DNA of 64,000 bases from an uncultured Candidatus Saccharibacteria bacterium (lineage in GTDB: Bacteria; Patescibacteriota; Saccharimonadia; Saccharimonadales; JAGQNK01): contig CAZWRS010000002.1 of assembly GCA_964636435.1 (NCBI GenBank), forward strand, positions 296 through 64,295, written 5' to 3'. The stretch's first letter is position 1; the number at the start of each line of letters is the position of its first letter. The notes below the pieces were generated by a model. That model was not told the origin of the DNA. It made no database searches and saw only the letters and a list, made by a program, of their open reading frames with translations. Made by a program: the position numbers and the translations under genes. Shown piece after piece: positions 1,663 to 25,389 of the stretch.

Positions 1663-3150
1663 ATGAAAACCAGAAGTTTCGTGATGCCAAAAATATGGCT
1701 GTACGTATTAACGGCAACTGTGCTCACTTTGAGCATAGCTACTGCCCCTATGACAGCCAGTGCGGCGGTATCGATTAGTATCGATAGCCCAGTTGCGGGC
1801 CAGAGTGTAGCTGGTGGGCCAGTTCAGATTGCCGGTACCGCTACAGCTGGACGGACGGTTGTGGTGTACAAAGGGGCGAGGCCGCTAGCCATGACGAGGG
1901 CTGACGGGTCAGGGCAGTGGCGTGTCGACGTGGCCAGCCTCGGTAACGGATCACATACATTGACCGCTAAGGTTATCGGTAATGATGGTTATGGCTATTT
2001 CAGCTCCACAAACGGCGCTTCGAGCGCCATGAACAGGCTGCGTTTGTCCGATAATGTTCTTAACCCCGGTGGCGATTGGCCAGTTGCGACGAGTGGTGCC
2101 CGGCTAGTGCCAACAGCTGTATCATCAGGATCTACGGTCGACTATCACTATATGCCAGGAGGCGCGGCTGCGCTGCCAGGTAAGTTTGACAAGAGTAATC
2201 CTGCTGATTTTGCTGACGTGAGCGGGTACCCTGCCAGTCCTGGTTTGTCGGGTGGTGGCTTTAGTCTGGATGGCACAAAGTGGTACGGCGTTAACAGCGC
2301 CCTTGATAACGTGTCAGTCGTTGATGTTGCGACCAACACCCAGGTAGGCACTATTGCGGTCGGTGGCACTCCTCAAACAGGTATCTTGGGGTCTGACGGA
2401 AGGTTTTATGTTGGCAACACCGATGACTCAACCATATCAGTTATTGATACCAATACTGACACGGTCGTGGCCACCCATACTATTACGGGGTGTGTTACGC
2501 CTGGCAGTCTCGGCTTTATGGCTTTCCCTAGTGGTGAGGACTATTTCTACGTCGCCTGTGCTCAAGATGGTCTTATTCTGAAGCTGCGTTTACAGGATGG
2601 CTCAGTGCTGGACACGTTAGACATTAGCGCGACGCATGGGATGATTAGCTCTATGTTCCTCTCGCCGGATAGCAAGACGCTGTACGTCTCTGGGATGCTT
2701 ATGGAAGCAAACGGCAACAAGGTGGCTATCGTAGACGCCGCAACAGGCACAGTTAATAAGTCCGTCACGCTTTCCGGTGCGGCTATTGCTAGCAGCCTAA
2801 CACCAGATGGGCAGTATCTCTATGCAGCGACGCAAGGCGCTGGCTTCGATATGGAGAATATAGACGTCATTAGCACTGCTACTGGTGATATCGTCACCTC
2901 AATTGACACAACTAGCACAGGTCTCGCTGGCGTGGTTTCGTTCGATGAGCCAAGTACTGCCACTAGTGACGTAACCTTCACATTGGGTGCGGCAGCAGAT
3001 GGCGGGACAGATTCAGTGGTTAAAGACGGCGAGCTGGCAGCAACGGGCGTCAATCAGCGAATACTGATGCTAGGAGCTGCAGCGGTACTGGGCCTCACCC
3101 TGGTGGTTGCTCGCATCAGAAAAGTAATTCACTACCGTTTAAGCGCGTAG
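1663..3150 (+). CDS. Secreted surface protein: N-terminal Ig-like domain plus YVTN-type beta-propeller repeats, with C-terminal LAATG sortase-type sorting signal
   Basis: ATG at 1663 preceded by GGGAAG RBS. Signal peptide MKTRSFVMPKIWLYVLTATVLTLSIATAPMTASA. Repeats of type YVGNTDDSTISVIDTNT, LYVSGM, LYAATQG. C-terminus LAATG + hydrophobic stretch + RIRK tail. Confidence 0.6.
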   Translation: MKTRSFVMPKIWLYVLTATVLTLSIATAPMTASAAVSISIDSPVAGQSVAGGPVQIAGTATAGRTVVVYKGARPLAMTRADGSGQWRVDVASLGNGSHTLTAKVIGNDGYGYFSSTNGASSAMNRLRLSDNVLNPGGDWPVATSGARLVPTAVSSGSTVDYHYMPGGAAALPGKFDKSNPADFADVSGYPASPGLSGGGFSLDGTKWYGVNSALDNVSVVDVATNTQVGTIAVGGTPQTGILGSDGRFYVGNTDDSTISVIDTNTDTVVATHTITGCVTPGSLGFMAFPSGEDYFYVACAQDGLILKLRLQDGSVLDTLDISATHGMISSMFLSPDSKTLYVSGMLMEANGNKVAIVDAATGTVNKSVTLSGAAIASSLTPDGQYLYAATQGAGFDMENIDVISTATGDIVTSIDTTSTGLAGVVSFDEPSTATSDVTFTLGAAADGGTDSVVKDGELAATGVNQRILMLGAAAVLGLTLVVARIRKVIHYRLSA

Positions 3151-7953: not shown

Positions 7954-10122
7954 ATGATGCAACATGATCTCTTGGTGGGTTTGAATACGGAGCAGCAGCG
8001 GGCGGTGGAGTGCACCGAGGGGCCGCTGCTTATTCTGGCTGGCGCTGGTTCTGGCAAGACGAAGACGCTCACGCACCGCATTGCGTACATCATTGCGACC
8101 GGGAAGGCCACACCCTATAACATTCTAGCGGTGACGTTTACCAACAAGGCCGCCCGGGAAATGCGTGAGCGCGTCGCACAGCTGCTCGGCCAGAGTGCTG
8201 ATAACCGTTCATTCATGCCCTTTATGGGGACGTTCCACTCTATCTGCGTACGACTGCTGCGGCAGGATGGGGAGCATATCGGCATCCCGAAGAACTTCGT
8301 GATTTTTGACGAGGCAGACCGCCTGGCGGCTGTGAAGCAGGCTTGCAAAACGGCCATGATTGATGAGAAGAGCTACCCGCCGCGAACACTGGCGAGCATT
8401 ATCAGCAACGCTAAGAATGAATTATTAACGCCGCAGGATTACTTAGGGGTGGCTAGCGGTCCGACGCAGCGTGCGGCGGCGCAAATTTTCCCACTGTATC
8501 AAAAAACACTCAAAGACAACAACGCACTGGACTTCGATGATTTGATTTCCCGCACCGTCAACTTGCTGCAAGCGCAGACGACAATCCGCCGCAAGTGGCA
8601 GGAGCAATTCAAGTACATCATGATTGATGAATACCAGGACACCAATGCTGCGCAGTACAAGCTCGTGAAATTATTGACAAACATTAATAATAATATTGTA
8701 GTAGTAGGCGATGATTTCCAGTCGATATATTCATGGAGGGGCGCAGATTTCCGCAATATTCTGAACTTTGAAAAAGACTATCCCAATGCAACTATTATCA
8801 AGCTGGAGCAGAACTACAGAAGTACGCAAGCTATCCTGAACGCAGCTCATCAGGTTATTACTAAGAATAAAGAAAGATCAGATAAGAAGCTCTGGACAGA
8901 CAACGGGGCTGGAAGCCCAGTGAGTGTATTGCAGGTCGCCAACGAGCGTGCTGAAGGCGAAGCCATAACCAGGCGGGTTAAGAACGCGGTGGATGCTCGG
9001 TTCCGAAACTACCGTGACTTTGCGGTACTGTATCGGACCAATGCCCAATCACGCAGCATTGAAGAGACATTCATTCGTTACGGTGTGCCGTATCGCATCG
9101 TGGGCGGTCAGCGCTTCTATGACCGTAAGGAAATTAAAGATGTCATGGCGTATTTACGCCTTATTTACCAACCCGAGGACCGGATAAGTTTTGAGCGGAT
9201 TGTAAACGTGCCGACGCGCGGTATCGGTGCCAAGTCGGTGCAGAACTTCTTTACCTGGAAGGACGCGAATAATCTGGGCCTGCAGCAGGCACTGGAAACG
9301 GTGCGTGATCACCCGAACTTGACCGGCAAGGCCCGGAAGGGTCTGCAGGAGCTGGGGGACATGCTACAGTCTCTGCGCGAGCTATCGACGGATACTCCGC
9401 TGCCAGCGTTGCTCGATAGCCTGCTGCGGCGGATCGACTACTTTGCCTACATTGACGATGGCACGCCGCAGGGCGAATCACGTGCCGAGAACGTGCGAGA
9501 ATTGGTGAGCGTCACCCAAAGTTACCAGGGCCTGGGATTGGATGGCTTCCTGGAGGAGATGGCCCTGATCAGCGACATCGACTCAGCTGAATTCAGCAAC
9601 AATGCCGTAACACTCATGACGATTCATGCTGCCAAAGGCCTAGAGTTCCCGGTGGTATTTATGATCGGCATGGAGGAAACGATTTTCCCGCACTCCCGTG
9701 CCCTGTACGATCAGGCGGAGATGGAGGAGGAGCGTCGGTTGTGCTACGTGGCGATGACCCGTGCCCGCGAAGAGCTCTACATGAGCTACGCAACCTCACG
9801 CATGCTTTATGGCGGTGTGCAGCACAACCCGCCGTCGCGCTTCTTGAGCGAATTTGACTCCCAACTACAGACCGACAGCATCAGCCTGGGTGGCGGGATG
9901 TGGCAGAATATCTTTGAACAGGAAAGCTATGACGACTTGCCGACCACGGTAGTCGATGAGCCGCAATATGTACCCGAGCTACATGAAGGCGACACCGTAA
10001 AGCACGATGTGTTTGGCCAGGGGACGGTCATGGAAGTCGATGGCGATAATGTCGTAGTGTACTTTAAGGGAAAGGGCGCCAAGAAGCTGAACGTGTCGTT
10101 TGCGCCCCTGCAAAAGTTATGA
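7954..10122 (+). CDS. uvrD: ATP-dependent DNA helicase UvrD/PcrA (SF1)
   Basis: LNTEQQRAV, Walker A AGAGSGKT, and TIHAAKGLEF motif V/VI region. Confidence 0.9.
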   Translation: MMQHDLLVGLNTEQQRAVECTEGPLLILAGAGSGKTKTLTHRIAYIIATGKATPYNILAVTFTNKAAREMRERVAQLLGQSADNRSFMPFMGTFHSICVRLLRQDGEHIGIPKNFVIFDEADRLAAVKQACKTAMIDEKSYPPRTLASIISNAKNELLTPQDYLGVASGPTQRAAAQIFPLYQKTLKDNNALDFDDLISRTVNLLQAQTTIRRKWQEQFKYIMIDEYQDTNAAQYKLVKLLTNINNNIVVVGDDFQSIYSWRGADFRNILNFEKDYPNATIIKLEQNYRSTQAILNAAHQVITKNKERSDKKLWTDNGAGSPVSVLQVANERAEGEAITRRVKNAVDARFRNYRDFAVLYRTNAQSRSIEETFIRYGVPYRIVGGQRFYDRKEIKDVMAYLRLIYQPEDRISFERIVNVPTRGIGAKSVQNFFTWKDANNLGLQQALETVRDHPNLTGKARKGLQELGDMLQSLRELSTDTPLPALLDSLLRRIDYFAYIDDGTPQGESRAENVRELVSVTQSYQGLGLDGFLEEMALISDIDSAEFSNNAVTLMTIHAAKGLEFPVVFMIGMEETIFPHSRALYDQAEMEEERRLCYVAMTRAREELYMSYATSRMLYGGVQHNPPSRFLSEFDSQLQTDSISLGGGMWQNIFEQESYDDLPTTVVDEPQYVPELHEGDTVKHDVFGQGTVMEVDGDNVVVYFKGKGAKKLNVSFAPLQKL

Positions 10123-14403: not shown

Positions 14404-14432
14404 TAGACATAAGCGCTTTTATACGGTATAAT
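14404..14432 (+). promoter_or_regulatory. Candidate sigma70-type promoter for ssrA (TAGACA-17-TATAAT)
   Basis: TAGACA at 14404-14409 and TATAAT at 14427-14432 with a 17-nt spacer, about 36 nt upstream of the tmRNA 5' end. Confidence 0.4.
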
Positions 14433-14467: not shown

Positions 14468-14851
14468 GGGGCTGAATTTAAGCTCGACGTTGGACTTTAA
14501 CAGTTAGATCAGCAGGCCGCTTGTCAGCGTTATAGACACCATTTAGTAGATGCAGAAAAAGTATCTCTTAGCGACATGGTTGACCGTGTTCTCGGTCGCC
14601 GTGAAGCACTCGCTTTCGCCTAAGAACGGAAGCTATCTTTGGTCCGACGCCAGATAGGATCATTAGATATCATATTTTCTGGATGCCCATACGCAAGTGT
14701 TCCATAGCGTATGGAAAGACTTTTGGAACAGTCTCTTCAGCCTTTTGTTCGTTTTTATGCTGAAGAGGTGAACGTAAACGGACTATGCCTGTAGGATAGA
14801 CTAACTTAGTTAAACTAGCGGACGCGGGGGCAGTACCCGCCAGCTCCACCA
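14468..14851 (+). ncRNA. ssrA: tmRNA (transfer-messenger RNA, SsrA)
   Basis: 5' GGGGCTGAATTTAAGCTCGACG matches the tmRNA acceptor/D-arm. 3' GGACGCGGGGGCAGTACCCGCCAGCTCCACCA matches the T-arm/acceptor with encoded CCA. An internal tag frame ends ...GRREALAFA then TAA at 14621-14623. Confidence 0.85.
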
Positions 14852-18867: not shown

Positions 18868-20703
18868 ATGAATAGCGCCGTCCAAGACCCATCGAAAATC
18901 AGAAATATTGCGATTATCGCCCACGTTGACCATGGCAAGACGACCATGGTAGATGGGCTGCTCAAGCAGTCCCATACCTTCCGCGACAATCAGGCGGAGA
19001 TGGGCCAGGAGCTGATCATGGACAGTGGTGACCAAGAGCGTGAACGCGGTATCACGATTACTGCCAAAGTAACGGCCGTGCAGCATAGCGACTACCGGAT
19101 TAATATTATTGATACGCCGGGGCATGCCGACTTTTCGGGTGAAGTAGAGCGGACGCTCAATATGGCTGACGGCTGTATTCTGATCGTGGACGCCCAGGAA
19201 GGCCCCATGCCACAGACCAAGTTCGTGCTCGGCAAGGCGCTCGCGGCCGAGCTCAAGCCAATTGTCATTATTAACAAAATAGACAAGCCCGGTCGTCGCA
19301 TTAAAGAAGTCGAAGATGAGCTGGCGGACCTGTTCCTGGAGCTGGCCGTTCACGAAGAGCAGCTGCACTATCCGGTGTACTACGCAATTGGTCGGACCGG
19401 CAAGGCGTGGGACTCGATACCTGATGATGTAGAGGCGGAAGCTTCGCTGGCGCCAATTTTTGGCGCCATAACTCAGCACGTTCCGGCTCCACGGGTGGAG
19501 CTTGATAAGCCCTTTCAGATGCTCGTCACGGCTCTGTCATGGGACTCATATAAGGGTAAGTATGCGGTTGGGCGCATCAACAGAGGCCAGGTAAAGGCGG
19601 GTCAGCCGGTGGTGGTCTGTAAAAAGGACGGCTCGCTCGCAAAAGCAAAGATTGATACCGTCTGCATGAGCCACGGTGTGTCGAAGTTCGAAGTGCCCGG
19701 CGGAATCGCCGGCGATATTGTCCGGTTGACGGGCATTGGCGATGTGCAGATTGGTGAGACAATTGCTGACGCTGACAGCCCCGAAGCCTTGCCAGTGCTT
19801 GAGGTGGAGGCACCGACGCTCAAGGTATATCTTGGTCCGAATACCTCCCCTTTGAAGGGCACCGAAGGAGAGTTCAGCACCTCACGTCAAATTAGTGAAC
19901 GCTTGCAAAAAGAGCTGGAGACGAACGTTGGTTTGCGCGTTGAGGAAGATGGTATCGGCTTTTTAGTGTCTGGCCGCGGCGAGCTGCACCTAAGCGTGCT
20001 GATTGAATCGATGCGCCGCGAAGGCTATGAGTTCGAGGTGGGCCGACCTCAGGTCGTGACGCGGGAAATTAATGGGGTGACTGAAGAGCCGCTCGAGGAG
20101 TTGATCGTTGAAGTTGCCGCCGAACATGTCGGTACTGTCCAGATGGAGCTCGGCGCCCGCAAAGCCGAGCTGCTCGAGCAGTTCGCCAGTCCAAAGGGCG
20201 TAACGAAGCTTGTGTATAAGCTGCCTACCAGAGCACTGCTTGGCCTCCGTAACATTTTAGTGACCAAGACGAAGGGGACGATCATCATGAACAGCCTGAT
20301 GATTGGCTACCAGCCGCTCGGTTCATCATTGCAGCAAATCCGTAACGGCGTACTGATAGCCTATGAAGCTGGCACGACGACACCGTACGCCCTGCAGATG
20401 GCTGAAGGGCGCGGTGATATCTTCGTCGGGCCCGGGGAAAAAGTCTATGCCGGCCAGATTATCGGTCTTAACAAGCGTCAGGAAGACATGGAAATGAACG
20501 TGTGTAAGGCTAAGCACCTGACCAATATGCGTGCTTCCGGTAGTGACGGCGTGGTGCAACTGACACCCCCGACAATTCTTAGCCTTGAGCAATGTTTGGA
20601 TTTTATTGAAAACGACGAGCTGCTGGAGGTCACGCCGAAAAACTTAAGACTTCGCAAAAAAGAGCTCGACCCCAATAAGCGCAAGCGCCAGAACAAGCAG
20701 TAA
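18868..20703 (+). CDS. typA: Translational GTPase TypA/BipA
   Basis: IRNIAIIAHVDHGKTT and DTPGHADF motifs; length 611 aa. Confidence 0.9.
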   Translation: MNSAVQDPSKIRNIAIIAHVDHGKTTMVDGLLKQSHTFRDNQAEMGQELIMDSGDQERERGITITAKVTAVQHSDYRINIIDTPGHADFSGEVERTLNMADGCILIVDAQEGPMPQTKFVLGKALAAELKPIVIINKIDKPGRRIKEVEDELADLFLELAVHEEQLHYPVYYAIGRTGKAWDSIPDDVEAEASLAPIFGAITQHVPAPRVELDKPFQMLVTALSWDSYKGKYAVGRINRGQVKAGQPVVVCKKDGSLAKAKIDTVCMSHGVSKFEVPGGIAGDIVRLTGIGDVQIGETIADADSPEALPVLEVEAPTLKVYLGPNTSPLKGTEGEFSTSRQISERLQKELETNVGLRVEEDGIGFLVSGRGELHLSVLIESMRREGYEFEVGRPQVVTREINGVTEEPLEELIVEVAAEHVGTVQMELGARKAELLEQFASPKGVTKLVYKLPTRALLGLRNILVTKTKGTIIMNSLMIGYQPLGSSLQQIRNGVLIAYEAGTTTPYALQMAEGRGDIFVGPGEKVYAGQIIGLNKRQEDMEMNVCKAKHLTNMRASGSDGVVQLTPPTILSLEQCLDFIENDELLEVTPKNLRLRKKELDPNKRKRQNKQ

Positions 20704-20737
20704 TAAGGTATCCCGGCCGGTGTAATCCTGGTTTGTA

Positions 20738-21435
20738 ATGTATTATGCACATATGAGTAGGCCGCGGATAGCAATCATGGGATCGGGCGAAGGCTCTACA
20801 GCAGAAGTGTGCGCTCGGTCAGCCGCTGATGGAAGCTTGCGTGCAGACATTGGATTGGTCATATCTAATCAGCCGGCGTCGGGCATAATCAGGCGTGCGG
20901 AAAGCTGGGAGCACGTGTATGGGTTAGCAGTAGATTCGATCGTGATAAACCAGCATACGCACCCTGATGGGGCGCATGCCAGGGGGCAAACAGACAGTGA
21001 GTCACTGGCTATCGCCGAGAGCCTGGTAAAGCATGACATTGATCTCGTCCTGATGATGGGGTACTTGAGAATCGTAGGTAAGTTGCTACTGGAGAGGTAC
21101 GGCTTCGTCGCTGGCAGGCATAGTGATGTACGGCAGAGCCGGATGCTGAACTGGCATCCCGGTCCTTTGCCGCTGACTTCAAGCGAGTACGGTGTCGGGG
21201 CTGCCGAGAAAGTTCTGGATGCCTATATGGCCGGGAAGATCGTCAAATCTGCGTGTGTCTCGTGCATGCAGTTTCCGAATCAGTCGACGAAGGCCCAATT
21301 TGGCGGCTGCATGAGGTTCCGGTGCACGAGTACGACACACCCCAGAGTTTGTTTGGGCGTACACAAAAAATTGAAAAACAGTATTTAACACAAGACATCA
21401 ACGAGTTTATTGAGCTCCAGTCGGGGAGTCAGTAG
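20738..21435 (+). pseudogene. purN: PurN-like phosphoribosylglycinamide formyltransferase (formyl transferase family) interrupted by a -1 frameshift at a (GT)n tract near 21251-21260
   Basis: Frame A: RIAIMGSGEGS...LNWHPGPLP. Frame B from 21253: CLVHAVSESVDEGPIWRLHEVPVHEYDTPQSL, matching the TVHFVxEELDxGPIIxQxxVPVxxxDT core of PurN. No single frame covers both halves. Confidence 0.55.
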
Positions 21436-21495
21436 CAACTCGACTATGCGATAATACTCATAGACAAAACTTATGATACATGATATAATAAAAGA

Positions 21496-21729
21496 ATGAG
21501 AGCATGTATTGTGATGCTAGTGGTCGTGGCGGCCTTGGTGTTTGGCACTACTGGGACTGTTGCGGCGACTGACGAAGGCTTTGTACCGCAGACGTCATCG
21601 ACCAGAACGGATGTGCCGAGCCCGTCGGCCTTGCCGGCAGCCGGGGCGGGGCATGTGCTGGTAGTGTTTGCTGGGGCAACCGGTCTAGGTTTTGCCGGCC
21701 ATGTATGGCTTCGGCGTAAACGGGTATAA
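21496..21729 (+). CDS. 77-aa secreted mini-protein with C-terminal LPAAG sortase-type sorting signal
   Basis: Signal peptide MRACIVMLVVVAALVFGTTGTVAA. C-terminus LPAAG + hydrophobic segment + RRKRV. TATAAT at 21484-21489 only 6 nt before the ATG, with no SD, suggests a leaderless mRNA. Confidence 0.45.
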   Translation: MRACIVMLVVVAALVFGTTGTVAATDEGFVPQTSSTRTDVPSPSALPAAGAGHVLVVFAGATGLGFAGHVWLRRKRV

Positions 21730-21747
21730 GCCGGTAGGTTAATAAAA

Positions 21748-21774
21748 GCTCCGGCCACGAAGTGCGGCCGGAGC
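21748..21774. terminator. Bidirectional rho-independent terminator between convergent genes
   Basis: GCTCCGGCC-acgaagtgc-GGCCGGAGC hairpin followed by a T-rich tract. Confidence 0.6.
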
Positions 21775-21826
21775 AAGTCTTTTGGCTTAAAGTGTTTTAC
21801 CCAAATTGTTACCGAAGGACGAGCGG

Positions 21827-22624
21827 CTAGTAGGCGTATGCCATGCGCTCGCGGTGGTACTTTTCGTACGACTTGTAGTCTTTGTCCTTGCGGCTGTCGT
21901 TGTCTTTGTGGTCATAGCCGCGCTTGTGATCATCCGATTTATCGTAACGGACGAACTTGGCACGGTGGTGACTTGAGTGCTGTTTGTGGTCTTTGCGCTC
22001 GTAATTGACATGCTTGTATGACTTATTCCGGTTATGTGAGCGGTGCTTGTCATAGTCCTTCTTGTACTCAGACTTTTTGTCGTAGTCACGATAGTCTTTT
22101 TTGTAGTCTTTCTTTTTATGGCTGTCGCTATGCTTGTGATCGTAGTCCTTTTTCTTGTGATCATAGGACCTCTTGGAGACGTACTTGACGGGCTTCTTGT
22201 GATCGTGCCTGTCGTAGTCTTTGCTGTAGCGCTCCTTGTGATCGTGCTTCTTGTGGTCCTTTTTGTAATCCTTCTTATGCTCCCACTTGTTATCGTGATG
22301 CTTTACATATTTCTTCTTGTCATCGTCTTTTCGCCAGTGGTTCCAGCTGTACTTGTGGTCATGGTCTTTTTTGTGCTTGGACGATGGTCGCCACCACTTA
22401 TGGGAGTCATGTGACTTCTTGTACTGGTGGCTGTATGAGTTGGATTTATGATGCTTCCAATCCCTATCCTTGCGGTCCGAGCTTTTATGCTTCTTATGCT
22501 TATTGTGGTAGGAGTGGTGCTGCTTTTTGTACGAATCGTAGTTCGTGTACTTCGTGCGCGTACCCGGAATGTAGGCCATTCCTATGACGAGGGCACTTAC
22601 ACAGGTTGCTACAAAGTAATACAT
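21827..22624 (-). CDS. Secreted/anchored extremely His-, Lys-, Asp-, Tyr-rich low-complexity protein (repeats of KKDY / DHK / HKK type)
   Basis: Strong SD AAGGAGGT 9 nt upstream of ATG. N-terminal hydrophobic signal/anchor MYYFVATCVSALVIGMAYIPG, then about 240 aa dominated by H, K, D and Y. Terminator at 21748-21774 downstream. Confidence 0.55.
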   Translation of the reverse strand: MYYFVATCVSALVIGMAYIPGTRTKYTNYDSYKKQHHSYHNKHKKHKSSDRKDRDWKHHKSNSYSHQYKKSHDSHKWWRPSSKHKKDHDHKYSWNHWRKDDDKKKYVKHHDNKWEHKKDYKKDHKKHDHKERYSKDYDRHDHKKPVKYVSKRSYDHKKKDYDHKHSDSHKKKDYKKDYRDYDKKSEYKKDYDKHRSHNRNKSYKHVNYERKDHKQHSSHHRAKFVRYDKSDDHKRGYDHKDNDSRKDKDYKSYEKYHRERMAYAY

Positions 22625-22827
22625 ACTTGCTACGTACCTCCTTGAAAGTTAGATTTGAAAATTAAATGCATGTACCTCCTTTCAAAGTCGCTTTTTTCAT
22701 TTTTAGCAAGGGCTGATATTCGGTGCCATGAGTATTCTCACACTACTTCCTATAGAGAACAGTTTGTAATATTTATTACTTACGGCAGGTGTAAAATAGA
22801 AGGGTAGGGTAAGGTAAGGGGTTTGGT

Positions 22828-23985
22828 ATGAATAGACGAGCAATACTGGGTGCACTGCTCTTGCTGGTGGTGCCGGTGTTTGCATGGGTCGGGCTGGCGA
22901 ACGCGCAAACGTTCCGCTCCGGTGATACGACGACAGTAGACGCCAATGAAACGGTGAATAGTTCGCTGTTTGCCAGCGGCCGCACGATAGACATTGCTGG
23001 AACAGTTGACGGTGACGTGTACTGCGCGGGCATGAATATATTCGTCAGCGGTACCGTGCGCGGTGATGTGCTGTGTGCCGGACAAAATGTGACAGTATCG
23101 GGTGAAGTTGAGGGAGATGTGCGGCTGGCTGGCCAGTCAGTAACGGTCAGCGGCCAGGTGGATGGCAGTGCGTCAGTAGCAACGGCAGCTTTCTCGCTGG
23201 ATAGCCGGGCGCGCATTGCCCGTGACCTGAGCGTGGCGAGCAGTGATATGGCGCTCAATGGCCAGGTTGGCCGGGATGCAGCGTTAGCCGGCGCAAGTGC
23301 GGTGCTCAATAACCAGATTGGTCGGAACGTAAATGCGAGCGTTGAGAGCTTGCGATTGAATGGTCAGGCAGATATCGGTGGCGGGCTGTACTACACGAGC
23401 AGTCAGGATGCGCAGCTTGCTGAAGGGGCGCAGGTAGCTGGCGAGACGCGGCGATCTGAACCGCAGCAGACCAAGGGCACGTTTGAGGCGCCGTTCATTA
23501 CCGGCGCATCGTTCGTGTTTTACACCATAGCGGCGTTGCTCATATTGTCACTGGCGCTGGTGCTGCTGTTTCCGCGAGCTGTGCATGCAGTCACGAGCCA
23601 GGCGGTTGCGCAGCCGCTGAAGGTGCTGCTGGTAGGCTTTGTGGCGAGCCTGGCAGTGCCGGTGCTCATTATCGTGCTGCTGGTTACGGTGCTGGGTATT
23701 CCGCTGGCCTTGCTGCTTCTTGGTATTTGGCTCCTGATACTGTTTCTGGCTGGCCCTGTCTTTAGCTACTATATCGGTCGGCTGCTGCTTTCGGGCCAGC
23801 GTAACGTGATGCTGATTATGGCGCTCGGTGCACTGGTGGTGCTGCTCCTGCTGTTCATACCGATCCTCGGCTTCCTGGTGTGGTTGGCGGCAATGTGGAT
23901 GGGTGCTGGCATGATCCTGCTCGAGATTACCCGCCGGACCCCGCGTCCACGATATGAGATAGAGCCAGCTGCGGCGAAGCGGTAG
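22828..23985 (+). CDS. Membrane protein with cleavable signal peptide, extracytoplasmic bactofilin-like beta-helix repeat domain and C-terminal polytopic TM region
   Basis: Signal ...GLANA|QT. Repeats VSGTVRGDVLCAGQNVTVSGEVEGDVRLAGQSVTVSGQVDG resemble bactofilin (DUF583) repeats. There are 4-5 C-terminal TM helices. Confidence 0.5.
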   Translation: MNRRAILGALLLLVVPVFAWVGLANAQTFRSGDTTTVDANETVNSSLFASGRTIDIAGTVDGDVYCAGMNIFVSGTVRGDVLCAGQNVTVSGEVEGDVRLAGQSVTVSGQVDGSASVATAAFSLDSRARIARDLSVASSDMALNGQVGRDAALAGASAVLNNQIGRNVNASVESLRLNGQADIGGGLYYTSSQDAQLAEGAQVAGETRRSEPQQTKGTFEAPFITGASFVFYTIAALLILSLALVLLFPRAVHAVTSQAVAQPLKVLLVGFVASLAVPVLIIVLLVTVLGIPLALLLLGIWLLILFLAGPVFSYYIGRLLLSGQRNVMLIMALGALVVLLLLFIPILGFLVWLAAMWMGAGMILLEITRRTPRPRYEIEPAAAKR

Positions 23986-24054
23986 CTGCTGCCTAGTCAG
24001 AACATGCTATGCTATAACGAGCAATAGCAAGCCTCGAATAAACATTACAAAGAC

Positions 24055-25389
24055 ATGAAACTCAACCTGCGAAAAAGTAAATTACCGACTATGCCAGCGG
24101 TGCCGCCAGCGATTTCGAGCCTGGCGACGGTGCCGCTCAATATCTTGAATCCCAAGGTTTTGAGCGATGTCTTGTTTAAAAAAGACAAGCGCACAGAGCT
24201 GTTTTTAGAACTCTCGCCGCAGAAGCGGCTGCTGCTACTGCGTTCGTTGACACCGAGCGTGCGCAAGGAGATTCTGCTGCACGTACCTGATCAGGAGCTG
24301 GTGTCGCTGATTCACATGGTCGATCCGGATGAGGCGACGGATATGCTGCAGCTGCTGTCGGCAAAACGCCGCGAAAAGATTTTGCAGATGGTGAGTACCG
24401 AACTTAAGGATTCACTGAGTACGCTGCTGGCGTTCGACGCTGAGACCGCGGCCGGTCTGATGACCCTGGATTACATTCAGGTCAGCCCAGAAGACACGAT
24501 CGTCGAAGTGGCGAAGAAGTTTAAATCCCACGAAAAAGCGACCGGTCGGCCGCCAGTTATCCTGGTCATGAAAGAAGATGGCAAGTTGGCGGGCTTTTTG
24601 CCGGGCCACGAACTGGGCTTTAGTCGCACTACGGAAAAAATCGGTAAATATATTAAGCGCATGCCGTCAGTGTCGTACGCCGCGACGCACGATGAGGTGG
24701 TCCATATCTTCCATACCTACCCGCACTCCAAGGTGGCGGTCAAGAACGATGCCGGCAACGTCATAGGTATTATCTATTCCGATGACGTGCTCAATTTGCT
24801 GCAAGAGCAAGAAGCTTCCTCGCTGTACGACTTTGCAGGTATTCGTCAGGAGGAGAGTATTGCGGACAGCACCCGGCGCAAAGTTATCAACCGGCACCGC
24901 TGGCTGATCGTTAACGTCTTTACTGCCTTTTTGGTGGCTTTCACAGTCAGCCAGTTCGAAGGAATCCTCAGTCAGTACGTCTTGCTGGCGGCGTACATGC
25001 CTATTGTGGCCGGTATGGGCGGTAATGCGTCTATGCAGACGTTTGCGGTGCTGGTGCGCGGTATTTCGCTCGGACAGATCAGTCTCAGGACTGCCGGTCG
25101 GACGCTGCGTAACGAGCTGGGGGCCGGGTTTATTAACGGTATTATCATCGCGGTGATTGTGGCGAGCGTGGCTATCGTAATGAACGGCGATCTGCGGCTG
25201 GGCGCTGTGCTGGCGCTGGCAATGGTCATCAACCTGATGGTGGCGGCCTTTTTCGGTACCGTCGTGCCGCTGGTCATGAGCCGGCTCGGCAAAGACCCGG
25301 CGACCTCGGCATCTATTTTCATTACCACCGCGACCGATGTGCTGGGCTTCTTAGCTTTCCTCGGTTTGGCATCGCTCATTCTCATGTAA
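24055..25389 (+). CDS. mgtE: Magnesium transporter MgtE
   Basis: MgtE N-domain, CBS pair region and C-terminal TM domain (PIVAGMGGNASMQT). Confidence 0.85.
   Translation: MKLNLRKSKLPTMPAVPPAISSLATVPLNILNPKVLSDVLFKKDKRTELFLELSPQKRLLLLRSLTPSVRKEILLHVPDQELVSLIHMVDPDEATDMLQLLSAKRREKILQMVSTELKDSLSTLLAFDAETAAGLMTLDYIQVSPEDTIVEVAKKFKSHEKATGRPPVILVMKEDGKLAGFLPGHELGFSRTTEKIGKYIKRMPSVSYAATHDEVVHIFHTYPHSKVAVKNDAGNVIGIIYSDDVLNLLQEQEASSLYDFAGIRQEESIADSTRRKVINRHRWLIVNVFTAFLVAFTVSQFEGILSQYVLLAAYMPIVAGMGGNASMQTFAVLVRGISLGQISLRTAGRTLRNELGAGFINGIIIAVIVASVAIVMNGDLRLGAVLALAMVINLMVAAFFGTVVPLVMSRLGKDPATSASIFITTATDVLGFLAFLGLASLILM

Follow-up and report, generated by a model that had tools for sequence, protein, structure and literature searches.

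A 77-residue predicted sortase substrate with an LPAAG sorting signal and a near-consensus promoter in Saccharibacteria

Introduction

Surface proteins of staphylococci and streptococci with an alanine residue instead of the threonine in the LPXTG sorting motif are among the closest described counterparts of the protein considered here. SasD of Staphylococcus aureus carries exactly LPAAG. Two LPxAG proteins are known from S. aureus (PMC3436756). SasF (LPKAG) is wall-associated, and alanine occupies this position in 5 of 10 SssF-like proteins (PMC3398289). Two LPXAG proteins exist in Streptococcus uberis, and the motif was given there as "LPXTG, or occasionally LPX(A/S)G" (PMC2657157).

The locus analyzed here is a small gene, the mini-gene, at positions 21496-21729 of a 64,000-nucleotide stretch of Saccharibacteria DNA, referred to as the window. 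Its product, the mini-protein, shares with SasF and with SUB0207 and SUB0241 of S. uberis the same tripartite signal with alanine at position 4 of the motif. These LPXAG substrates, however, are several hundred residues long, contain folded passengers, and belong to the Bacillota, whereas the mini-protein contains a 21-residue passenger and originates from the CPR. There is no sequence relationship between them outside the signal.

The same architecture of a signal peptide, a very short mature part, and an LPXTG signal is found in the NCBIfam family NF053819 (EF2685/EF0750, Enterococcus, profile length 105). This was the best-scoring NCBIfam family for most members of the mini-protein family, with 12.4 bits for the window member and up to about 20 bits for its relatives at a cutoff of 47. 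The mini-proteins are shorter (77-91 aa) and contain an invariant core of their own, so that NF053819 is an analogue and not a family to which they belong. Searches of the literature yielded nothing specific on EF0750 or on sorted proteins in Patescibacteria.

GspA of Actinomyces oris, reportedly described by Wu and colleagues in 2014, is said to be a small sortase substrate with a glycosylated Ser/Thr-rich region and no adhesive domain. As a sortase substrate with a Ser/Thr-rich region, it would resemble the mini-protein, but it is reportedly much larger and unrelated in sequence, and the likeness is a lead only.

For Saccharibacteria, which live attached to other bacteria, little is known about the surface molecules, and most of the published work concerns type IV pili. 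Sortases and predicted sorted proteins have been reported in a TM7 genome (Kantor et al., PMC3812714), and a sortase family occurs in more than half of the CPR genomes, with a patchy distribution outside the Microgenomates (Meheust et al., PMC6744442). As judged from its sequence, the mini-gene is probably a leaderless, strongly transcribed gene. Its exported product would be cleaved by a sortase between alanine and glycine of the LPAAG motif, leaving a 25-residue peptide on the peptidoglycan.

Reading frame and layout of the mini-protein

The open reading frame (ORF) and its predicted parts are as follows.

21496-21729, plus strand: coding sequence, with the stop codon, for the LPXTG-type mini-protein of 77 aa (translation; orthologues)
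21496-21567, plus strand: predicted signal peptide, aa 1-24, with an MR n-region, a hydrophobic core, and a V-A-A cleavage site (sequence reading)
21568-21642, plus strand: predicted wall-anchored product, aa 25-49, TDEGFVPQTSSTRTDVPSPSALPAA, 25 residues (cleavage rules of signal peptidase and sortase)
21586-21624, plus strand: invariant core PQTSSTRTDVPSP, aa 31-43, 13 residues (comparison of the window, L006, and L008)
21631-21645, plus strand: sorting motif LPAAG, aa 46-50 (Thr-to-Ala variant of LPXTG)
21646-21711, plus strand: hydrophobic membrane-retention segment, aa 51-72, 22 residues (family-invariant F58, G65, H69)
21712-21726, plus strand: basic cytoplasmic tail RRKRV, aa 73-77 (translation)

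The first-pass annotation of the window had proposed a minimal ORF of 77 codons with an LPAAG signal. This is borne out by the translation, MRACIVMLVVVAALVFGTTGTVAATDEGFVPQTSSTRTDVPSPSALPAAGAGHVLVVFAGATGLGFAGHVWLRRKRV, and by orthologues in five other species. An in-frame TGA at 21481-21483 bars an extension in the upstream direction, which means that the ATG at 21496 is the earliest possible start. Five short Logan contigs, each from an independent run, encoded exactly this 77-aa protein, always with LPAAG, and a 99%-identical variant (P0001, V11M) contained LPAAG, too. This indicates that LPAAG is fixed in this species and not the result of an assembly error.

Removal of the signal peptide and cleavage by a sortase should leave 25 residues (aa 25-49), in agreement with the 25 to 30 residues estimated previously. 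The portion from aa 25 to aa 45 is a 21-residue stretch rich in Ser, Thr, and Pro. A 25-residue peptide of this kind is not expected to fold, and a Pfam scan of the mini-protein gave no match. An interpretation as a lipoprotein was rejected; the conserved Cys at position 4 or 5 is too near the N-terminus, and a lipobox is absent.

Phylogenetic range of the family and selection on the gene

The typA gene at 18868-20703 served to locate related loci. TypA and the products of the neighboring genes were 80-90% identical to those of metagenome-assembled genomes of Saccharibacteria/Saccharimonadales, with the closest TypA matches in L006 (CAZNIN010000002; 90%), L007 (87%), and L008 (JAKQHX010000028; 87%). 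A tblastn comparison on the TypA loci yielded syntenic orthologues of the mini-gene at 8402-8653 of L006 and 8387-8632 of L008. Further members came from 1.84 billion representatives searched exhaustively with HMMER, a step that was required to uncover the family, and from searches with a profile and in metagenomes. A word-indexed homologue search with the single protein returned a 99%-identical copy as the sole match, the metagenome scan with the family alignment returned a single locus, which belongs to the species of L008, and a separate profile search with a lengthened sorting-signal module returned the known members and nothing further. The family consists of six distinct species-level sequences of 77 to 91 aa, the window member and five others.

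Window member: 77 aa, LPAAG, found in five independent assemblies
L006/P0002: 83 aa (78 aa as called), LPATG, syntenic
L008/P0004/L093: 81 aa, MPETG, found in two independent assemblies
P0003 (L096): 88 aa, LPATG
P0009 (L094, L095): 81 aa, LPATG
P0010 (L086-L089): 91 aa, LPETG, QTSSTWT unit duplicated

A related C-terminal module occurs in three larger proteins, P0007 (182 aa, LPKAG), P0008 (203 aa, LPKTG), and P0011 (153 aa, LPKTG). No Pfam or NCBIfam model matched the family, and the window copy and its homologues in the searched collection were without a precomputed Pfam domain. The mini-proteins are a small and narrow family restricted to one clade of the Saccharibacteria (TM7).

Invariant positions in the alignment of the six members are F29, P31-Q-T-S-S35, T38-D39, P41, P47, G50, F58, G65, and H69, and the core PQTSSTRTDVPSP is almost unchanged across all six species. 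When the window, L006, and L008 were compared by the method of Nei and Gojobori, this core displayed 0 non-synonymous and 8 to 10 synonymous differences per pair, with saturated synonymous sites. The substitution pattern settles the coding strand and the frame. A core without an amino acid change next to 8 to 10 synonymous changes also indicates strong selection on the gene, with the short mature peptide as its functional part. For the same three genes, the dN/dS ratio was 0.14-0.25 over the whole mini-gene. It decreased to about 0.04 in the predicted anchored segment, aa 25-49, and reached about 0.8-0.9 in the signal peptide. Fast evolution of the signal peptide is the expectation for a cleaved leader. 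The small residues at positions −3 and −1 of the cleavage site were kept in 6 of 6 members (VAA, VFA, VNA, VYA, ARA, and TSA). An uncleaved signal anchor that would make the protein a membrane-to-wall tether was rejected on the same grounds, the conservation of the AXA sites and the almost neutral evolution of the leader.

The mini-gene is real, conserved, and under purifying selection. Its shortness, the missing Pfam match, and a 101-aa antisense ORF that overlaps it would be in line with a spurious ORF, or with the antisense ORF at 21471-21776 (minus strand) as the real gene. Against this stand the third-codon-position substitutions, which leave the amino acids of the plus-strand frame unchanged, the loss of the antisense ORF in L006, and the promoter and terminator that flank the plus-strand ORF. 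The probability of a spurious ORF is practically negligible.

In P0010, which comes from a low-GC relative, the QTSSTWT unit of the core is present as a tandem duplicate (L086:10100-10160), and the gene is located directly upstream of that for MgtE.

LPAAG as a probable sorting signal

At the position of LPAAG, the orthologues contained LPATG in three species, LPETG, or MPETG, and a hydrophobic segment of the same type with a basic tail came next. LPAAG can thus be understood as a Thr-to-Ala variant of the canonical LPXTG motif. The change from LPATG to LPAAG requires one A-to-G transition, from ACC or ACT in the relatives to GCC in the window. The features of an LPXTG-type substrate that can be recognized in a sequence, which are a Sec signal peptide, a variant of the motif, a hydrophobic segment, and a basic tail, are all present. 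A second, independent LPxAG case was found in the same kind of module, the LPKAG of P0007. In a pairwise test, the sorting signal was 45% identical to that of a 240-aa LPATG protein encoded in L016 (E = 4e-6), and the signal is homologous to canonical LPXTG signals. The proposal of the first-pass annotation that LPAAG may act as a sortase sorting signal is supported by the canonical LPATG and LPETG motifs of the syntenic orthologues and by LPXAG as a natural variant elsewhere.

The NCBIfam model for such anchors, TIGR01167 (LPXTG_anchor), assigned 13.8 bits (E = 0.072) to the mini-protein, below the cutoff of 15.9, and 12.8 bits, also below the cutoff, to the L006 orthologue with its LPATG motif. 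Other Saccharibacteria LPXTG-type proteins tested, including those of L016 and L065, gave no match at E values up to 1. Canonical LPXTG-type proteins of the Saccharibacteria thus receive low scores or none, and the calibration of the model is poor for this lineage.

In two of the six species, the motif deviates at normally strict positions, with Thr replaced by Ala in the window and Leu by Met in L008, and selection on the motif may therefore be relaxed. The exchange of Thr for Ala might even have inactivated the motif, and the product, once its signal peptide is removed, would then be a small type-I membrane protein that displays the conserved 20-residue peptide on the outer face of the membrane. 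Variation in LPAAG and MPETG at positions strictly conserved in most substrates agrees with such a protein, as do the invariant F, G, and H residues of the hydrophobic segment, which could indicate an intramembrane function, and the fact that a sortase was not located in the window or in the related loci. On the other hand, the Pro and Gly residues of the motif are invariant in the family, the motif always directly precedes the hydrophobic segment, and in staphylococci, proteins with LPxAG are anchored to the wall (PMC3398289). The F..G..H pattern is also common to the large LPATG/LPNTG surface proteins of L016 and L065, so that it looks like a general feature of the sorting signal in this lineage. 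Retention of the mini-protein in the membrane is considered unlikely.

A different processing site would be VPQTS, which recalls the class B motifs NPQTN and NPKTG, or the core might be an extended recognition element for a dedicated sortase, with LPxxG in a secondary role. PQTSS is indeed far better conserved in the family than LPxTG, and a related VPQ(T/V)SST precedes LPK(T/A)G in P0007, P0008, and P0011. Known sorting motifs, however, directly adjoin the hydrophobic segment, while VPQTS was found 17 residues before it and LPAAG in the canonical position, which does not agree with a signal of the class B (NPQTN/NPKTG) type. The duplication of QTSSTWT in P0010 is easier to reconcile with an epitope or a modification site than with a site of cleavage, and the core is missing from other proteins of the Saccharibacteria that carry the same LPxTG signal. 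Processing at VPQTS is very improbable, and cleavage at LPAAG is the preferred reading.

Search for the sortase and further sorting signals

The window had been described as devoid of a sortase gene with the TLxTC motif, and the motif, Pfam, and by-eye checks confirmed this. Searches with regular expressions found TLxTC neither in the window proteins nor in about 1.1 Mb of related loci. The Pfam Sortase model did not match any of the 45 window proteins scanned, and the last four window ORFs, judged by eye, were without sortase features. A phmmer search of 2,657 ORFs with S. aureus SrtA as the query and an inspection of the Pfam annotations around P0007, P0008, P0010, and P0011 did not locate a sortase either.

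A second sortase-type signal in the window, which had also been proposed, proved to be real.

3034-3150, plus strand: C-terminal LAATG, hydrophobic segment, and RIRK of the beta-propeller protein encoded at 1582/1663-3150

This ORF continues for 10 more residues after RIRK. Apart from the mini-gene, it was the sole ORF in a six-frame scan of the window to combine such a motif at the C-terminus with a hydrophobic segment and basic tail.

The first-pass annotation had named a lack of motif enrichment as a point that would speak against a sorting signal. To obtain a count, the fetched Saccharibacteria DNA was freed of duplicates, and its ORFs with a length of 150 aa or more were screened for a strict L[PA]xTG before a C-terminal anchor. 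Among the 117 ORFs that possess an anchor of this kind, composed of a hydrophobic segment plus basic tail, 6 contained the motif just before it. Five of these 6 had not been ascertained via the query, namely, those in L016, L065, L069, and L081 and the beta-propeller ORF of the window, compared to about 0.12 expected from a background of 7.5e-5 per residue. This corresponds to an enrichment of about 40-fold before C-terminal anchors (Poisson P of about 2e-7) and is a partial answer that applies to the fetched loci.

Two flavors of the signal appeared in the Saccharibacteria loci, LPxTG with a hydrophobic segment containing F...G(Y/F)..H and LAxTG with a different hydrophobic segment. Both were seen among the sites window 3034-3150, L016:4089-4811, L065:12352-13806, L069:2576-4108, and L081:5886-7004, which hints at two sortases or two classes of substrates.

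Promoter, leader, and terminator

Three features that may control transcription of the mini-gene flank the ORF.

21461-21466, plus strand: −35 box TAGACA (invariant in the window, L006, and L008; present in L096)
21481-21489, plus strand: extended −10 box TGaTATAAT, with TATAAT at 21484-21489, ending 6 nt before the ATG
21748-21774, strand not assigned: GC-rich hairpin, a predicted bidirectional terminator (11-bp stem, fold z-score −3.35)

With a 17-bp spacer, TAGACA and TGaTATAAT match the sigma-70 consensus at 11 of 12 positions and contain the TG extension in addition. Two sites with 11 of 12 matches exist in the 64 kb, compared to 0.45 expected in shuffled sequences, and that of the mini-gene is the sole one with the TG extension and the best sigma-70 match of the window. 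High expression of the mini-gene is a reasonable conclusion from an 11/12 promoter with a TG extension that is rare in 64 kb and comparable to that of the tmRNA gene; the gene is probably highly expressed.

The other 11/12 site, TAGACA-17-TATAAT at 14404-14432 (plus strand), precedes the gene for the tmRNA (ssrA). This gene was identified at 14468-14851 (plus strand) by Rfam (RF00023, 87.9 bits) and was not reported by ARAGORN.

A TATAAT hexamer 6 nt upstream of the ATG without a Shine-Dalgarno sequence had been noted previously, and both features were confirmed. A −10 box that ends 6 nt before the ATG, together with the missing Shine-Dalgarno sequence before the ATG at 21496, would place the transcription start on or next to A21496. 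The −35 box, the length of the spacer, and the extended −10 box are conserved in L006 and L008, at a distance to the ATG of 6 nt in L006 and 8 nt in L008. The geometry of the promoter thus fits the leaderless mRNA suggested for this gene and is shared by the two closest species, and a leaderless or near-leaderless mRNA is plausible.

The more distant members differ in this respect. In L096, the same promoter was kept, and about 55 nt are inserted before the start codon. In L094, the leader comprises about 60 nt and includes the Shine-Dalgarno sequence GAGGTG. This indicates that leaderlessness would be a trait of this subclade and not of the family. The insert in the P0003 species (L096:880-925) contains a direct duplication, GGAGTAAACGG followed by GAGTAAACGG, which converted a leaderless arrangement into a leadered one.

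The arrangement is also not special within this genome but usual. At least 12 of the approximately 50 genes of the window contain a TAnnnT box 6 to 12 nt before the start codon and no Shine-Dalgarno sequence. Starts of this kind are those at 7957, 11929, 40184, 42118, 47982, 49292, and 61567, and the box often reads TGnTAnAAT. Leaderless mRNAs or those with a very short leader look common in this Saccharibacteria genome, as far as the positions of the boxes indicate; a literature search yielded nothing specific on leaderless mRNAs in Saccharibacteria.

The hairpin at 21748-21774 is common to the mini-gene and the convergent gene at 21827-22624 (minus strand). In L006 and L094, this position is likewise taken by hairpins, with compensatory sequence changes, and a comparison of the region 20600-24200 with Rfam found no RNA family.

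Fate and possible role of the anchored peptide

On the reading preferred here, the near-consensus sigma-70-type promoter would direct initiation to the A of the ATG or a position next to it, yielding an (almost) leaderless mRNA. The 24-residue signal peptide should target the product to Sec export and be removed after V-A-A, according to the sequence rules for such peptides. The precursor would be kept in the membrane by the C-terminal hydrophobic segment and the RRKRV tail until a sortase, as homology of the signal suggests, cuts between Ala and Gly of LPAAG and transfers TDEGFVPQTSSTRTDVPSPSALPAA to a peptidoglycan precursor. The functional part is presumed to be the core PQTSSTRTDVPSP, which would measure up to about 9 nm in an extended form and be located within the wall or at its surface. 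There, it might serve as a modification site, for instance, for O-glycosylation, or as a recognition epitope, although this is speculative. An epitope or a modification site would agree better than a fold with the Ser/Thr/Pro-rich composition of the core, the QTSSTWT duplication in P0010, and the related stretch in three larger proteins.

The most likely interpretation is that of a new, narrow family of the Saccharibacteria with a mechanism that extends a well-known one, and of an ordinary surface protein of the Gram-positive style. A more far-reaching idea is possible but doubtful, that this is the smallest natural family of sortase-anchored polypeptides, highly expressed and composed of signals only, with an invariant 13-residue Ser/Thr/Pro payload as a dedicated decoration embedded in the wall of an episymbiotic CPR bacterium. 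If this is true, the payload would be an acceptor for glycosylation or phosphorylation, or an epitope for contact with the host bacterium or with phages, and would not act as an adhesin domain. The combination of a passenger-less, lineage-specific protein, a promoter of the grade of that of the tmRNA gene, and a payload of 13 residues points to a cheap and abundant modification of the cell wall.

The mini-gene family may moreover provide a very simple natural reporter of the activity and specificity of CPR sortases (LPATG versus LPAAG versus MPETG). The peptides DVPSPSALPAAGAG and DVPSPSVLPATGTK would form a pair for the determination of sortase specificity, with the Thr form included.

Genomic neighborhood

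The mini-gene is located in a variable segment between typA and a conserved block encoding MgtE, trehalase, MetRS, and TatD. Orthologues at the same position, between TypA and MgtE-trehalase-MetRS-TatD, exist in L006, L008/L093, L096, L094, and L086. In L007, the whole segment is absent, and MgtE directly follows TypA. The upstream neighbor in the window is a gene for a divergent PurN-like formyltransferase (20738-21388), and that in L006 (7858-8364), L008 (7849-8346), and L096 encodes a YdjM-type membrane protein.

The slot after YdjM and before MgtE is occupied in L016 by the gene for the 240-aa LPATG protein mentioned above (L016:4089-4811), which contains DUF11 repeats. The sorting signals of both proteins, 45% identical, share TGLG...H and the basic tail. 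Unlike the mini-protein, the L016 protein possesses a folded DUF11 passenger and a Pro/Thr linker, contains no PQTSST core, and should be translated from a leadered mRNA with a strong Shine-Dalgarno sequence. The use of the same slot and the related signal suggest that the mini-proteins are related to the ordinary sorted surface proteins of this lineage and differ by the lack of a passenger.

This 240-aa protein with a homologous signal, together with the variability of the segment between TypA and MgtE and the absence of the gene from L007, could also mean that the mini-gene is functionless and in decay, the leftover of a larger surface protein whose passenger domain was lost. A remnant would hardly persist in six species with its ORF unbroken and of similar length, its core invariant, and its synonymous sites saturated, nor would its promoter be conserved and the best consensus match of the window. 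Decay is scarcely credible here, and a functional mini-gene with a sorted product continues to be the preferred reading.

The convergent gene downstream of the hairpin, at 21827-22624 (minus strand), is conserved in L006 (46% identity) and in L094/L095. It encodes a 265-aa protein with an N-terminal hydrophobic segment and a remainder that is extremely rich in His, Lys, Asp, Tyr, and Ser, and no Pfam or NCBIfam family matched this protein. It is followed in the window and in L006 by a gene for a bactofilin-domain protein, which adjoins MgtE in L006 and L008. In the window, this gene (22828-23985, plus strand) encodes a signal peptide, a beta-helical bactofilin domain (PF04519), and a C-terminal region that spans the membrane several times.
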